IMG/VR virus record: IMGVR_UViG_3300033153_010139 | Location: 55,267-119,266 of that record | Source: a virus | DNA: 64,000 nt | Strand: one strand, 5' to 3' | Part shown: positions 41,309 to 46,761 of the stretch, in pieces | How positions within the stretch are numbered: the stretch's first letter is position 1 | Layout of the letters: every line of letters begins with the position of its first letter | The notes under the pieces: model-generated | What the model was told of the DNA's origin: nothing | Databases searched by the model: none | What the model saw: the letters and a program-made list of their open reading frames with translations, nothing else | Program-made: the position numbers and the translations under genes

Positions 41309-42010
41309 ATGGCTCCGAAGCGCCAGCTCCAGTCCGTATTCTCCCAGGCTGAGGAGAGCCTCCGCGAGTTGTGGGGACCGGACCTAGTCCAGCGCAACGC
41401 CGAGCTTCGCGCCGCAGTCGATCGTGACATCGCCCGGACACTGGTGCCGACAATCTCCACGGACCCGATGTCGGCAGTAGACGAGCTGGCGGCGCTCTCC
41501 AAATTCCCGCACCTGCCGGCGGTGCTGCGGCGAGTCGCGAGCGGGAGCTGGGACTACGACGCGGAAGAGTTCAGCCGAGCCGTCCGAGACGCCATCGTGT
41601 GCGGGCCGCGGATGCCGGAGATCGCCCAGGAGGATCTCGATGCCGAGATTGAGGCAGCGCTGGCCGACGCCGCGCAAGGCATCCCGAGCCCGGACCTGCA
41701 CGACCGTGTGCTGGAGCTGATGCACGAGCGCGACGCGGGCGGGATCGGCTGGTATCCGGGCCGGATCCCCGAGGTCGAGCTGCATCTCCGGGCCGAGTCG
41801 ATCAGTGCCAAGCCGCGCCAGCTGCGTGGTACCTGGCCACCGAAGCCGCCCGAGCCGTCAGTGGTGGACCGACTGGCGGCGACGGTGGACCAGGTTGCCG
41901 CCGAGCGCGTGGCCAAGATGGACGCGGCGCGCGCTCGTGTTGACGAAGCGGCCGACGAACTGCGCATCCTGTTCGAGCCGACACGCTACGGTGGGGAAGA
42001 GGCCGAATGA
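41309..42010 (+). CDS. Two gp23-like capsid fragments, each followed by the tag
   Basis: KRQLQSVFS..VDRDIARTL + SAVDELAALS; IPEVELHLRAESISAKPRQLRGTW + SVVDRLAATV. Confidence 0.65.
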   Translation: MAPKRQLQSVFSQAEESLRELWGPDLVQRNAELRAAVDRDIARTLVPTISTDPMSAVDELAALSKFPHLPAVLRRVASGSWDYDAEEFSRAVRDAIVCGPRMPEIAQEDLDAEIEAALADAAQGIPSPDLHDRVLELMHERDAGGIGWYPGRIPEVELHLRAESISAKPRQLRGTWPPKPPEPSVVDRLAATVDQVAAERVAKMDAARARVDEAADELRILFEPTRYGGEEAE

Positions 42011-42285
42011 CCTTTGCGCCGGAACCGAGGAAGCTCAAGCCGGGCGAGAAACCCCAGAGGATCGAGGTCGGTGAGTTCACGACGTTCAAGCTCCCCCCGA
42101 TCCAGCCCCCCGAGCCGTCGGCGGTTGATCAGCTGGCGGCTGTCGTGAGCAAGCGCGCGAGGAAGCGCCTGGAGCGCAAGAAGCGGTGGGCACCGCTCAC
42201 CAACGAGCAGATGGCTGGCGTTCTCCCAATGACGCGCGGTGCTACCTTCCCCATGAACGTCACGTACAGGCGGCAATCCCGATGA
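42007..42285 (+). CDS. Tagged protein, possible split gp23 N-terminal block
   Basis: FTTFKLPPI-[SAVDQLAAVV]-NEQMAGVLPM..F.MNVTY. Confidence 0.55.
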   Translation: MTFAPEPRKLKPGEKPQRIEVGEFTTFKLPPIQPPEPSAVDQLAAVVSKRARKRLERKKRWAPLTNEQMAGVLPMTRGATFPMNVTYRRQSR

Positions 42286-42773
42286 CCGACGACACCATGT
42301 TTCCCGTCTACACCTTCCCGCTCAAGAACAACGAGCACCGCGTGATCGATGGCGATACAGTCGTCGTTGAAATCGACCGTGGCTGGGGCGACCGGAAGAA
42401 GACCGCACTGCGGCTTAACGGGCTCGACGCGCCCGAGTCGCGCACACGCAAGAACCTGCTGGAGCGCCAGGCCGGCAAACTCGTCACGAAGGTCGTGCTC
42501 AAGTGGTTCGAGGACCAGGGGAACCGCCAGCTCTACGCCAGCTCGGACACGCGCCCCAAGTACGCCGGCCGGACAGTCGGTCGCATCTGGGCCGGGGGCT
42601 ACGGCCAGTGCCTCAACACCTACCTGGTCGATCAGGGCCTCGTCGTCGAGTACCACGGCGGCAAGAAGGCCGCGTGGTCGCAGACGAAGCTCAAAGCGGT
42701 GATCCGCGCAGCGAACAAGATCCTGAACGACGATGCGGTGACCGAGCTGGGAGACCTGGCGCGCGATGACTGA
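42282..42773 (+). CDS. Thermonuclease (SNase-like) with C-terminal tag (DAVTELGDLA)
   Basis: RVIDGDTV, RLNGLDAPESR, KYAGR, LN..LV..GL...Y.GG. Confidence 0.85.
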   Translation: MTDDTMFPVYTFPLKNNEHRVIDGDTVVVEIDRGWGDRKKTALRLNGLDAPESRTRKNLLERQAGKLVTKVVLKWFEDQGNRQLYASSDTRPKYAGRTVGRIWAGGYGQCLNTYLVDQGLVVEYHGGKKAAWSQTKLKAVIRAANKILNDDAVTELGDLARDD

Positions 42774-43029
42774 TCCGTACAGCAAGTTCAAGTTCCGTGT
42801 TGCCGAGCCTTGGTCCGTCACCAGCGTCCCGCCGCCGGCATCGGTGGTTGAACGCCTGGCCGGGCTGGAGGACGCCAAGATTGCCGAGCGCAACCGTCAG
42901 TTGGACAAGGTGAACGCCGACCTGGAGGAGTGGCGCAAGAAGACCGGCGACGCGGACGAGTGGTGCGAGGTGGAGGTCAACGGCGTCAAGACGCGCGCTC
43001 GCATTCGCCTGGAGTACCGTGAAGAGTGA
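42766..43029 (+). CDS. Tagged protein with tail-tube-like N-terminal peptide
   Basis: DPYSKFKFRV + SVVERLAGLE. Confidence 0.55.
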   Translation: MTDPYSKFKFRVAEPWSVTSVPPPASVVERLAGLEDAKIAERNRQLDKVNADLEEWRKKTGDADEWCEVEVNGVKTRARIRLEYREE

Positions 43030-43268
43030 GCGCCGCGAGGAAGATAGCCAAGATCGCGAGCTTCGGCATGCTCTACGGGCAGAGCGCGCAGAGTCTCAAG
43101 AAGTTCGCGATGCCGGTATGGGAGCCGTCCGCGGTCGATCGCTTGGCCGCGCTGGCGGACCCGGAGATGGCGCGCAGGGTCGAGGAGTTCGACGAACCAG
43201 ACCTGAAGGCGAGAAGGCTGATCGCGCGCTGGGAGAAGGCTTTCCACACGAAGCAGCGCTTCCGGTGA
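43026..43268 (+). CDS. Tagged protein with DNA polymerase A motif-B-like peptide
   Basis: RKIAKIASFGMLYGQSAQSL + SAVDRLAALA. Confidence 0.65.
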   Translation: MSAARKIAKIASFGMLYGQSAQSLKKFAMPVWEPSAVDRLAALADPEMARRVEEFDEPDLKARRLIARWEKAFHTKQRFR

Positions 43269-43417
43269 CTGAGCCGCAGGACAAGTACGAGGAGTCCAAG
43301 AACCGCGAGCGCGTCGCCGGGATCATCGACTACGAGACCGGCGAGGTCAACCTGACGTGGACCAAGACGGACGACGCGACGACCGCGCTCGGCGATCTGG
43401 TGCGCAACGATGGCTAG
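43265..43417 (+). CDS. Tagged micro-protein with virion-like peptide
   Basis: GIIDYETGEVNLTW + DATTALGDLV. Confidence 0.55.
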   Translation: MTEPQDKYEESKNRERVAGIIDYETGEVNLTWTKTDDATTALGDLVRNDG

Positions 43418-45318: not shown

Positions 45319-45523
45319 CTTCATGCCGGGACCGCCGATTCCGATCCGCTGCGAGTGCGGCGCGAGGGCGACGTGGCGCGTTTACAACAGGAAGGTTAAG
45401 GGGGAGCAGTATCACTGCGAGACCCATGTGCCGCCGGTCGGCACGCCGCGCATCAAGCGGCTTGGGCACCGGCCATCTGGATTCTGGACAGACGCGCCGT
45501 CCGCTCCTGGGGTTCTCGACTGA
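45311..45523 (+). CDS. Small Zn-finger-like protein
   Basis: CECG..A...HCETH. Confidence 0.5.
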   Translation: MPDFMPGPPIPIRCECGARATWRVYNRKVKGEQYHCETHVPPVGTPRIKRLGHRPSGFWTDAPSAPGVLD

Positions 45524-45702
45524 TGCCGACGACTGCCCTCCAACCCGAGGAGTGCAAGCTCAAGTGGGCTGACATGGTGAGCGGCCTCGACGAGCCGGAG
45601 GCGACCACCATGGCATGCCTGCTCGAAGCACAGCACAGCTTCCTCAAGAACCGGCCGGCGGTTGACCAGCTGGCCGATCTGGCAAGGGAGAAGAATGCCT
45701 GA
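45523..45702 (+). CDS. 59-aa gp23-like N-terminal fragment + tag (below ORF-track cutoff)
   Basis: Hand translation: MPTTALQPEECKLKWADMVSGLDEPEATTMACLLEAQHSFLKNRPAVDQLADLAREKNA. Confidence 0.65.
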   Translation: MPTTALQPEECKLKWADMVSGLDEPEATTMACLLEAQHSFLKNRPAVDQLADLAREKNA

Positions 45703-45910
45703 CGTGTGGGACGACGCCTCGATGCGCGAGAGCATCCGCAAGCGCTACGGGCACCTGTGGCGCCCGCCCAGCGCGGTCGATCGGCTCGCCGCCCTGGCCG
45801 ACCCTGATGGCGAGTCCGCCGAGCTGGTGCGCAGATGGGAGAAGACGAAGGAGCGGCTGACGCTCATCCGGCCGGAATTCTACAAGACGGTCACGGTGGA
45901 GAACCTGTGA
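45695..45910 (+). CDS. gp23-like C-terminal fragment interrupted by the tag module
   Basis: RESIRKRYG-[SAVDRLAALADPDGESAELVRRWE]-LIRPEFYKTVTVENL*. Confidence 0.7.
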   Translation: MPDVWDDASMRESIRKRYGHLWRPPSAVDRLAALADPDGESAELVRRWEKTKERLTLIRPEFYKTVTVENL

Positions 45911-46257
45911 GCGACGGCCCGGCAACCAGCAACCATGCGCCTCCCCCGGTCAGCGCCGACTCTGGGAAGCGTGTGGAGAATGAGCCCGCCGCCCCGATCG
46001 AGTGGCTGGCCGCGAACATGCCGGGGGCTGTCCCAACAGCGATAGACCGGCTGGCGGCTGTCGCCGACCCCGAAGCTGCTGGGCGAGTCGCCGACTACGA
46101 CGAGTTCGAGACGCGCTTCGCCGAGGCATGCGGAGGCGAGACGCCGGGTCCTGAGTTCCTCACACCCGAGCAGTACAAGTGGGTCATCGCCACGGTGGTC
46201 AACGGGCGCCAGGGGTTCATCGACGCGGTCGAGGGGCGGGAGGCGACCAGTGGGTGA
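45907..46257 (+). CDS. Hypothetical protein with tag (TAIDRLAAVA)
   Basis: GTGA overlap. Confidence 0.6.
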   Translation: MSDGPATSNHAPPPVSADSGKRVENEPAAPIEWLAANMPGAVPTAIDRLAAVADPEAAGRVADYDEFETRFAEACGGETPGPEFLTPEQYKWVIATVVNGRQGFIDAVEGREATSG

Positions 46258-46495
46258 GCGCGAGCGCGAGGCCGACAAGAAGCTGTGGAAGGAGGCCGTG
46301 GAGCGCGGCTTCTACTACAAGCCGTTCGTCCCGCTCCAGATCACCGCGAACTTCTTTGCCCAGGAGCCCTCGGCCGTAGACCGACTCGCGGCCAAGGCCG
46401 ATCCAGCTGGCGAAGCCGCAAAGCGCGTGCGGGAGTGGGAGGAGGCGAAGGCGGTGGAGGACAGGTTTCGAGCGTCCGTCAGGTACGAGCCATGA
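46250..46495 (+). CDS. gp23-like fragment + tag
   Basis: GFYYKPFVPLQIT + SAVDRLAAKA. Confidence 0.7.
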   Translation: MGEREREADKKLWKEAVERGFYYKPFVPLQITANFFAQEPSAVDRLAAKADPAGEAAKRVREWEEAKAVEDRFRASVRYEP

Positions 46496-46761
46496 GCGTG
46501 CTGGACAACAACTGGCGCATCTACAAGGACCCAACGTACTCGCGCGCCGATAACCTCCCGCTCATGTTCAAACCGCGGCTGCCGCCGTCCGCCGTAGAAC
46601 GCTTGGCCGCTCTCGAAGATCCTGTGATCGCAGAGCGCATCAAGAAGTGGGACGAGGCACGAGCGCTGGGGGACAAGTTCGAGCTGCGCTCGATCGACTT
46701 CGTAGCCGACGAAGCGTGCCCGAGGGCTTACCCAATGCCGCGCCCGCCGAGCCTGGCGTAA
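46492..46761 (+). CDS. gp23-like fragment + tag
   Basis: VLDNNWRIYKDP + SAVERLAALE. Confidence 0.65.
   Translation: MSVLDNNWRIYKDPTYSRADNLPLMFKPRLPPSAVERLAALEDPVIAERIKKWDEARALGDKFELRSIDFVADEACPRAYPMPRPPSLA

Follow-up and report, generated by a model that had tools for sequence, protein, structure and literature searches.

An operon of overlapping mini-genes that join pieces of core proteins to a shared tag in an uncultured phage

The operon and its tag

We describe an operon of small genes at positions 41309-46761 of a 64 kb stretch of phage DNA (the window), which is the final part of the 119,266-base IMG/VR virus record IMGVR_UViG_3300033153_010139 (43% complete according to CheckV). It consists of 18 genes on the + strand (g2-g19) with 50-233 codons, and each of the 17 junctions between them is an overlap of 1-8 nucleotides of the start/stop type (ATGA, GTGA, ATGnnTGA, TGATG). 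A nineteenth gene (g1) and a gene for a lipoprotein-like protein are coupled upstream of g2. The encoded proteins share a short peptide, the tag, with the consensus S-A-V-D/E-x-L-A/G-x-L, and most join it to short pieces of phage core proteins, mostly the major capsid protein and the prohead protease (Table 1). An initial annotation, made from the letters of the DNA, had described about 18 overlapping short open reading frames (ORFs), 16 of them tagged. This description holds: 16 of the 18 genes carry the tag, in g4 and g7 as degenerate copies, and g11 and g14 are untagged.

A strict seven-residue version of the tag pattern has 16 matches in 15 of the 19 proteins; 2000 shuffles had 0.03 matches on average and never more than 1. 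In a six-frame translation of the whole record, 33 matches occur on both strands, 16 of which are in the operon; copies outside the operon often stand directly before a stop codon. When tag codons for the same residue are compared in pairs, third positions agree in 37% of 730 comparisons, and the tag serine is encoded by TCN (10 copies) as well as by AGC (4 copies). The tag is conserved and selected as a peptide, not as DNA. On the same two grounds we rejected an in-frame mobile DNA cassette like the Rickettsia palindromic elements, the copies of which are conserved as DNA. Because the tag is not conserved as DNA, it does not represent a recently mobile cassette.

In genes of the operon the tag is lengthened to a module of ~26 residues (E-P-S-A-V-D/E-R-L-A-A-L-x-D-P-x-x-A-x-R-V-x-x-Y/W-D), which is present in about 8-10 copies per genome of a relative. 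A profile of this long module, compared to PDB, gave a best E-value of 0.2, which we take as chance. In the AlphaFold2 model of g10 the module is predicted as two helices with a per-residue confidence (pLDDT) above 90, while the capsid-derived block is a coil with a pLDDT of about 57. The g16 model has the same pattern at lower confidence.

Relatives of the phage were traced via the tail sheath protein, which is 70% identical. One of them, G001, is a record of 275,101 bases with terminal repeats which is rated complete. It has 60 ORFs with a nine-residue version of the tag, 58 of them inside one locus, where their median length is 118 residues and the tag ends at most 12 residues from the C-terminus in 32 of the 58. 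The tag is found on about one in eight proteins of this 275-kb genome. The seven-residue pattern has 74 matches in G001, nearly all in small-gene arrays at about 109-178 kb and near replication genes, and the structural module (180-262 kb) contains a handful of weak matches. Apart from the mini-genes, G001 has 53 tagged proteins, 49 of which lack a Pfam domain; the other four are PolA, a DUF6011 protein, a protein with a phage zinc-finger domain and a ResIII helicase. A methyltransferase that ends in the tag is a further tagged protein with a domain.

Further tag copies lie outside the operon. The family-A DNA polymerase of G001 has an internal copy (..ERSAVDQLGDLVRGEDDDP.., residues 177-186) between its N-terminal domain and an acidic linker. 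An HNH-like ORF which follows the capsid gene has a tag-like SAVDxLA near its N-terminus. A phage contig with a GC content of 65% (L047) encodes a series of small proteins with variant tags at the end (..DIVRRLAELA, ..VIDEIGMLDK, ..VIDLIGDLG), and several of these resemble one paralogous small beta-rich domain.

A portable peptide on so many proteins might be an address for the virion: the tag would bind capsid or scaffold, so that tagged proteins, these mini-proteins included, are encapsidated and delivered along with the DNA. Such addresses to the capsid interior exist, among them the T4 capsid targeting sequence, the C-terminal tail of the HK97 protease and the C-terminal helices of scaffold proteins. 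They share with the tag that a short portable peptide is found on unrelated proteins, often C-terminally, and could dock on one partner. The tagged proteins with a known domain act on DNA (the nuclease g4, the methyltransferase, PolA and ResIII helicase of G001), which would suit injection, and the tag of g13 follows the protease domain at the point from which the true protease of the relative extends into a long scaffold-like coiled coil. However, the tagged ORFs of G001, about 60 mostly small proteins, are nearly all encoded outside the structural module. In T4 the targeting sequence lies at the N-terminus and is cut off at an L/I-x-E site, whereas the tag is C-terminal or internal, reads S-A-V-D/E-x-L and, judged from the sequences by the T4 cleavage rule, lacks an L/I-x-E context. 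We consider virion cargo improbable.

Pieces of the capsid protein and of other parents

Pfam and PHROGs searches with all 19 proteins gave meaningful matches for g4, g6, g10 and g13 only. We rely on a profile of 110 full-length capsid proteins from the clade, whose capsid proteins form roughly 70 clusters; the profile was compared to the 19 proteins with the tag masked; E-values are for 19 sequences. Reversed (19) and shuffled (380) versions of the proteins served as 399 controls, the best of which reached 0.5 bits (E-value 0.19). Nine of the 19 proteins score above all controls (g2, g7, g8, g10, g12, g15, g16, g18 and g19; Table 1). Shuffle tests against the single capsid protein of G001 gave z-scores of 20.9 for g10, 9.0 for g2, 8.9 for g16, 8.4 for g18 and 7.1 for g12, the others being marginal (g15 about 3). 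The same five have the capsid protein at the top of the list in a BLAST search against the 139 large proteins of G001, in which no reversed query had a match at E-value 0.01. The block in g10 corresponds to residues about 74-124 of the G001 capsid protein and in turn to about 92-140 of T4 gp23, numbered with a 65-residue offset that was derived from two chain lengths.

The initial annotation had recognized eight gp23-type fragments and had suggested a tag-masked search against the gp23 family. Seven of the eight score above all 399 controls; the fragment in g3 (gene start 42007) falls within their range. The Pfam model Gp23 (PF07068) matches only g10, with 17.3 bits below the cut-off of 24.4 (profile positions 6-44 of 376). 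g10 also matches phrog_138. The mini-proteins fail as family members of PF07068, PF03420 and PF00476, and we regard them as pieces or inactive copies.

The parentage proved wider than the gp23-type capsid protein that had been proposed, and includes the prohead protease (g13, g19 and, weakly, g8), the tail sheath (g7) and a family-A DNA polymerase (g6). g13 is a paralogue of the whole protease domain (phrog_207, E-value 3.9e-19; z-score 16.7 against the G001 protease with its intein removed; 20.4 bits against PF03420, Peptidase_S77, under the cut-off of 27). In the alignment DHP is changed to EPP and MSSRG to GTLRG, which replaces the conserved His and the Ser-Ser of two blocks whose His and Ser we take to be catalytic; the orthologues of g13 in G001 and in a second relative, G002, likewise lack the DHP and SSRG blocks. 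After its tag, g19 continues with a protease block (..DFVADPAC..AYP; z-score 9.6, 0 of 500 shuffles), and the end of g8 is marginally similar to the protease Ser block (z-score 3.1, 5 of 500 shuffles). g7 was rejected as a capsid piece since the tail sheath fits better (z-score 6.5 with 0 of 500 shuffles, versus 2.8 for the capsid protein; E-value 0.002 against the sheath of the same record). g6 probably holds a 22-residue copy of the polymerase motif-B region, for which support is modest: PF00476 positions 205-228 with E-value 0.022 and 14.1 bits (cut-off 34.3), phrog_17 with E-value 0.0041, and residues 757-779 of G001 PolA with a z-score of 4.8 (2 of 500 shuffles). g4 is of a different kind, being a complete nuclease (PF00565, E-value 1.4e-4, 22.7 bits with a cut-off of 21; phrog_452, E-value 6.8e-24).

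Some assignments were tried and rejected. g3 has a capsid-profile E-value of 0.38; g17 and the part of g18 that follows the tag have z-scores of 0.3 and -0.2 as capsid pieces; and g5 was considered as a tail-tube piece, without a match in PHROGs, among the large G001 proteins or to the sheath of the same record.

The predominance of head proteins among the parents suggests that the mini-proteins may regulate or poison head assembly, with the pieces and the inactive protease paralogue inserting into, or capping, intermediates in the folding and assembly of capsid protein, scaffold and protease. They would then either time the head maturation of the phage itself or act against a co-infecting phage of the gp23 type or a satellite that hijacks capsids, while the tag sets location or lifetime. 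Thirteen proteins have an identified or marginal piece, and 11 of these draw on head proteins. g13 is a whole protease domain with changed DHP and SSRG blocks, g19 and g8 each contain a capsid piece together with a protease piece, and g15 and g10 copy the capsid propeptide and N-terminal region, which in T4 gp23 contacts the prohead core. On the other hand, polymerase and sheath pieces do not fit a role restricted to the head, and several pieces (the EIDREI helix, C-terminal strands) belong to the core of the fold and are not obvious subunit contacts. The copied blocks also match residues that are conserved in the capsid protein of the phage itself, so that a poison would hit its producer, and the array is located beside replication genes, outside the head module. 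We hold such a role in assembly to be possible, with considerable doubt.

The true parents have features of their own. The prohead protease of G001 is a fusion of 943 residues with a long scaffold-like coiled coil. An intein of 346 residues (81-426), which carries a LAGLIDADG-type block, splits it immediately behind the DHPGDGK block. The acidic scaffold-like protein encoded 5' of it ends in ..AADDLRALAADLDD.., which, by eye, repeats the capsid block ..AADDLRALWGRD.. A search for loci related to g13 found none.

Table 1. Genes of the operon and other features mentioned in the text. Coordinates are positions in the window unless a record is named (G000, record of the window; G001, relative; L, loci). 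Capsid-profile matches are given as E-value and profile positions.
Feature	Coordinates	Strand	Length (residues)	Content	Tag	Capsid-profile match
Lipoprotein-like gene	40250-40885			heads the operon; signal peptide, LPTGC, HEQEH (HExxH) motif		
g1	40882-41289	+	135	Cys-rich (CxxC...CxxC); no family match at E<0.1 (Pfam, PHROGs)	SAVEKLGDLA 41257-41286, terminal	
g2	41309-42010	+	233	capsid blocks 41312-41455 and 41762-41836, permuted; after second tag EAADELRILF 41945-41974 = capsid 272-282, collinear, marginal (31/500 shuffles reach the score)	41471-41500 and 41858-41887	6.7e-6; 253-306 then 238-262 along the protein
g3	42007-42285	+	92	parent not found	42118-42147	0.38 (within control range)
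g4	42282-42773	+	163	complete staphylococcal-nuclease-type endonuclease	degenerate, DAVTELGDLA 42732-42761, at end	
g5	42766-43029	+	87	parent not found	with long module, from 42841	
g6	43026-43268	+	80	family-A DNA polymerase motif-B-like piece 43044-43109	43128-43157, long module	
g7	43265-43417	+	50	tail-sheath piece IDYETGEVNLTW 43325-43360	degenerate, TTALGDLV 43379-43402	6.7e-4; 197-223
g8	43410-43703	+	97	capsid insertion-domain-like piece 43455-43550; after tag protease-Ser-block-like piece (..IGISSRG) 43632-43688	43566-43595	0.02; 199-229
g9	43700-44029	+	109	parent not found	43994-44023, C-terminal	
g10	44026-44376	+	116	capsid N-terminal block 44071-44262 (..IVSVQPMTGPVGGMAFY..)	44275-44304, long module	7.8e-14; 55-118
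g11	44373-44627	+	84	basic C-terminal motif 44547-44609; parent not found	untagged	
g12	44624-44881	+	85	capsid spine-helix-like block ..EMRDEIDREIAEG 44657-44716; basic motif 44804-44866	44723-44752	4.8e-4; 283-302
g13	44878-45318	+	146	whole-domain prohead protease paralogue; acidic tail	45259-45288	
g14	45311-45523	+	70	Cys/His-rich; parent not found	untagged	
g15	45523-45702	+	59	capsid propeptide-region block 45553-45651	PAVDQLADLA 45655-45684, near C-terminus	0.01; 26-64
g16	45695-45910	+	71	weak capsid 445-458-like piece 45710-45751; capsid C-terminus 45827-45907 (..LTLIRPEFYKTVTVENL, then stop); collinear across tag	45770-45799, module	4.6e-6; 442-468
g17	45907-46257	+	116	parent not found	TAIDRLAAVA 46036-46065, module	
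g18	46250-46495	+	81	capsid block GFYYKPFVPLQITANFF 46295-46357	46370-46399, module	2e-5; 415-435
g19	46492-46761	+	89	chimera: capsid block VLDNNWRIYKDP.. 46498-46548; after tag protease block ..DFVADEACPRAYP 46648-46734	46588-46617, module	0.0023; 388-404
Second AAA_5 protein	29652-30809					
DnaN-like processivity factor	51473-52588			phrog_947, E 2.4e-34		
DnaB-type helicase	53886-55436			acidic tail		
MoxR-type AAA+ gene and CobT-like VWA gene	56425-60055			AAA_5, CbbQ_C in the MoxR-type gene		
HNH-like ORF	G000 15-1100 (upstream of window); G001 196278-197429			3' of the capsid gene in G001	tag-like, near N-terminus	
Family-A polymerase of G001	G001 40799-43639 (L027:799-3636)				internal	
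Acidic scaffold-like protein of G001	G001 190549-191862 (L034)			5' of the protease		
Prohead protease of G001	G001 191916-194747 (L034:11916-14747)		943	coiled-coil fusion, intein		
Small proteins on GC-65% contig	L047:500-5800				variant, terminal	

The lipoprotein-like gene at the head of the operon has no PHROG match. It is placed equally before the arrays in G001 and G002, where the two copies are 83% identical with a ratio of nonsynonymous to synonymous substitution rates (dN/dS) of 0.28. Promoters of the sigma-70 type and terminators are at or below chance in 36500-50500 and in one tagged-gene array of G001, and the T4-type late promoter TATAAATA is absent from G000 and G001. The basic C-terminal motif common to g11 and g12 (QQAFRRPxxRCGRGxPPxxKW) is AT-hook-like (RGRP) and may be a second portable module.

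Conservation of the array in related phages

All five relatives have a true Gp23-family protein in a 478-codon frame (186 bits against PF07068) and, in addition, weak Gp23 matches in small ORFs. The capsid protein of G001 aligns to T4 gp23 structures with an E-value of about 1e-20. The closest capsid protein of a cultured phage is only 30% identical, and the clade is therefore uncultured. In G000 a six-frame scan with PF07068 did not find a full-length capsid gene and matched mini-genes only; the mini-genes alone were also matched in the scans with PF03420 and PF00476. The first 55 kb of the record contain a myovirus tail module (sheath, tape measure, baseplate), and the record is without its head module. 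Its first ORF matches the HNH-like ORF that is located 3' of the capsid gene in G001; the capsid gene is missing because the contig starts just past it.

G001 has a homologous array of six genes in a different order, together with dispersed members. At the DNA level the G001 and G002 arrays share 70-87% identity, and five pairs of orthologous mini-genes have dN/dS values of 0.23-0.46 at synonymous distances (dS) of 0.4-1.0; a sixth pair was left out since its alignment covers only 19 residues. A neighbouring full-size gene has a dN/dS of 0.28. Between G000 and G001 the mini-proteins are 33-52% identical, compared to 70% for the sheath.

The family of g10 comprises 20 clusters among 1.84 billion representatives, most of them with 70-240 residues. 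The conserved parts are the tag and, with the residues Q, P, M, P, G and Y, the capsid block; in a 14-member alignment the invariant and near-invariant columns are found solely in the capsid block. A search for related loci with the family alignment kept 80 loci. Nearly all of the 34 that were inspected are full-length or contig-truncated capsid genes, and true mini-genes occurred only in G001, G002 and the GC-65% contig. The nearest clusters in the ESM Atlas are viral proteins of 74-117 residues with PF07068 on 58-68% of their members, and these may be truncated capsid ORFs. A word-index search with g16 returned only one other cluster. In P0003, an unrelated metagenomic protein from another phage, one chain holds a polymerase piece and then a capsid piece, each followed by a tag.

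A cluster of capsid fragments could simply be a decaying, frameshifted capsid pseudogene or an assembly artefact, as the record itself has no full-length capsid gene. However, the record begins just past the position where this gene is expected. The initial annotation had argued against a decaying pseudogene because the pieces are out of order, partly redundant and individually coupled. Positions on the clade profile and the 17 overlapping junctions bear this out: the ORFs are intact, each with its own coupled start, and the permuted pieces do not join into one collinear gene. Homologous arrays exist in the independently assembled records G001 and G002, where the dN/dS values point to purifying selection. 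A pseudogene, a collinear frameshifted gene and an artefact are ruled out by these comparisons.

A less trivial form of debris would be an old duplicate of head genes that was peppered by an insertable in-frame tag and broken into coupled ORFs, selection seeing the tag and the pieces being passengers. In three cases (g16, g2 and G001 25813-26109) both flanks of the module match the capsid protein collinearly, as though a loop had been exchanged for it. Such a module within otherwise collinear parental sequence would fit this history, as would the different gene order of G000 and G001, the low identity of the mini-proteins relative to the sheath, and the span of the capsid pieces, which together cover only 258 of the 477 capsid residues. 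The short flanking pieces in these collinear cases are marginal on their own (the score of the N-terminal g16 piece is reached by 22 of 500 shuffles). Against this, the columns that are invariant in the g10 family lie in the supposed passenger, two-parent chimeras are seen again in other phages (P0003), whole genes and not the tag alone have dN/dS values below 0.5, and the tag is not conserved as DNA. We think it quite improbable, even more so than virion cargo, that the pieces are passengers.

A possible function as bait and handle

Based on the sequences, we predict that the operon encodes a set of bipartite competitive mimics, each consisting of a bait and a handle, and assign a probability of about 0.45 to this reading. 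The bait would be one or two short peptides without a confident fold, copied from blocks of the core proteins of the phage, mostly the capsid protein and the prohead protease, in addition the tail sheath and the family-A DNA polymerase. The tag, a short capped helix that is lengthened here to a helix-turn-helix of ~26 residues, would be the handle. Start/stop coupling would allow all members to be made from one transcript in similar amounts. The bait may compete in the manner of microProteins, by occupying whatever reads the respective block while the parent is unfolded or nascent, and through the handle the complex would be tied to a putative common reader of the clade. The comparisons above show the gene anatomy, the homology of the pieces, selection and the conservation of the handle as a peptide; we infer every binding step as well as the direction of the effect.

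MicroProteins of plants and animals are small, originate from a portion of a larger protein, retain a folded interaction domain and act as competitive, dominant-negative partners. The mini-proteins share the small size and the origin from a piece of a larger protein, both of which are seen here, and presumably the competitive action. They differ in being short blocks without a confident fold, organized as a coupled library with a shared second docking module. The logic of two modules, one binding a target and the other docking on a common machine, is that of bivalent adaptors such as HIV Vif and SspB, to which there is no sequence or structural relation.

Our favoured target, a possible one by analogy, is a host surveillance system that reads linear blocks of core proteins, as Lit and EF-Tu read the Gol block of T4 gp23. 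The initial annotation had proposed decoys for host sensors or dominant-negative baits against a competing phage, with a tag that may recruit an effector. Two papers describe Gol as a peptide of 29 residues in the first quarter of gp23, its most conserved region, which binds EF-Tu and licenses Lit (PMC3014915, PMC9712102). With its linear trigger peptide, Lit/Gol is a valid precedent, and the best one, for a free ligand that is a block of a capsid protein. The block copied by g10 appears to be the homologous one, so that in both cases a short linear block from the first quarter of a gp23-type protein serves, or would serve, as ligand. The g10 block may be exactly Gol, for which the review gives no residue numbers. 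Gol belongs to the full capsid protein and has no gene of its own, whereas the g10 block is part of a free-standing, tagged and conserved mini-protein, one of about a dozen that copy various blocks and parents.

More speculatively, the operon might be a sensor trap encoded by the phage: a co-translated library would display the least mutable linear blocks of the core proteome on one docking handle, so that pattern-recognition or abortive-infection proteins of the host are caught early and passed to a single phage machine that reads the handle. We regard this version as rather unlikely. If it is true, that machine would, given the handle on ~60 other small proteins, be a general hub of host takeover.

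Candidate readers of the handle are encoded in the window, namely the DnaN-like clamp and the pair of a MoxR-type AAA+ protein and a CobT-like VWA protein. A second AAA_5 protein, which could be another candidate, is encoded elsewhere in the window, which also codes for DNA methylases, a DnaB-type helicase and a DnaC-like loader. The DnaN-like gene adjoins those of the loader and the helicase. The helicase has a long acidic tail with a terminal Phe (..DDDDDDDAGEDTGEVGVVTF), reminiscent of the polymerase-binding tails of T7 gp4 and gp2.5. Tails that bind a sliding clamp (the bacterial QL[SD]LF motif, the PIP box, the tails of T4 gp43, gp33 and gp55) resemble the tag in being one short C-terminal motif on many DNA-acting proteins, and the window does encode a DnaN-like factor. 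By eye, however, the tag is unlike the QL[SD]LF consensus; it is predicted to be helical with an N-cap, and 49 of its 53 carriers outside the G001 mini-genes have no Pfam domain. A complex prediction for the capsid protein of the relative with the g10 orthologue, both as alignments, gave a score of 0.00, which speaks neither for nor against binding.

Several points weigh against bait-and-handle mimics that act on host sensors. The parents are mostly proteins of head morphogenesis, for which head assembly is at least as direct a reading as immunity. With a copied trigger peptide as bait, a system of the Lit type might be activated instead of blocked. For the Avs sensors of capsid protein and DNA polymerase, a preprint describes recognition that is based on structure (bioRxiv 10.64898/2026.01.04.697583); short unfolded pieces could not mimic such a trigger. 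A parent was not found for seven of the 19 proteins (g1, g3, g5, g9, g11, g14 and g17), and g4 is a complete nuclease. The pieces do lie in better-conserved capsid blocks (3.10 versus 2.64 bits, a level attained in 19 of 476 circular shifts), but the enrichment is modest and is confounded by the easier detection of conserved blocks. The dN/dS values of the array show constraint, but not strong constraint. With regard to the target of the baits, control of the phage's own head assembly is a less probable candidate than host surveillance. Taken as a whole, assembly control is nearly as likely as the favoured reading of bait and handle, while virion cargo and passenger pieces are weaker.

In the searchable phage literature, with supplementary files outside the search, neither genes made of tagged capsid fragments nor the tag itself were found described. 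The design of these genes, a piece of a core protein joined to a shared helical tag, was found in no paper and appears to be new. If their anatomy reflects their function, phages turn pieces of their essential proteins into small competitive mimics that carry a portable handle as their address. This would bear on how large phages deal with host sensors of capsid and other core proteins, on the timing of head assembly and on the role of the orphan small genes of jumbo phages. A handle that is carried by about one protein in eight defines a putative hub in the biology of this clade.

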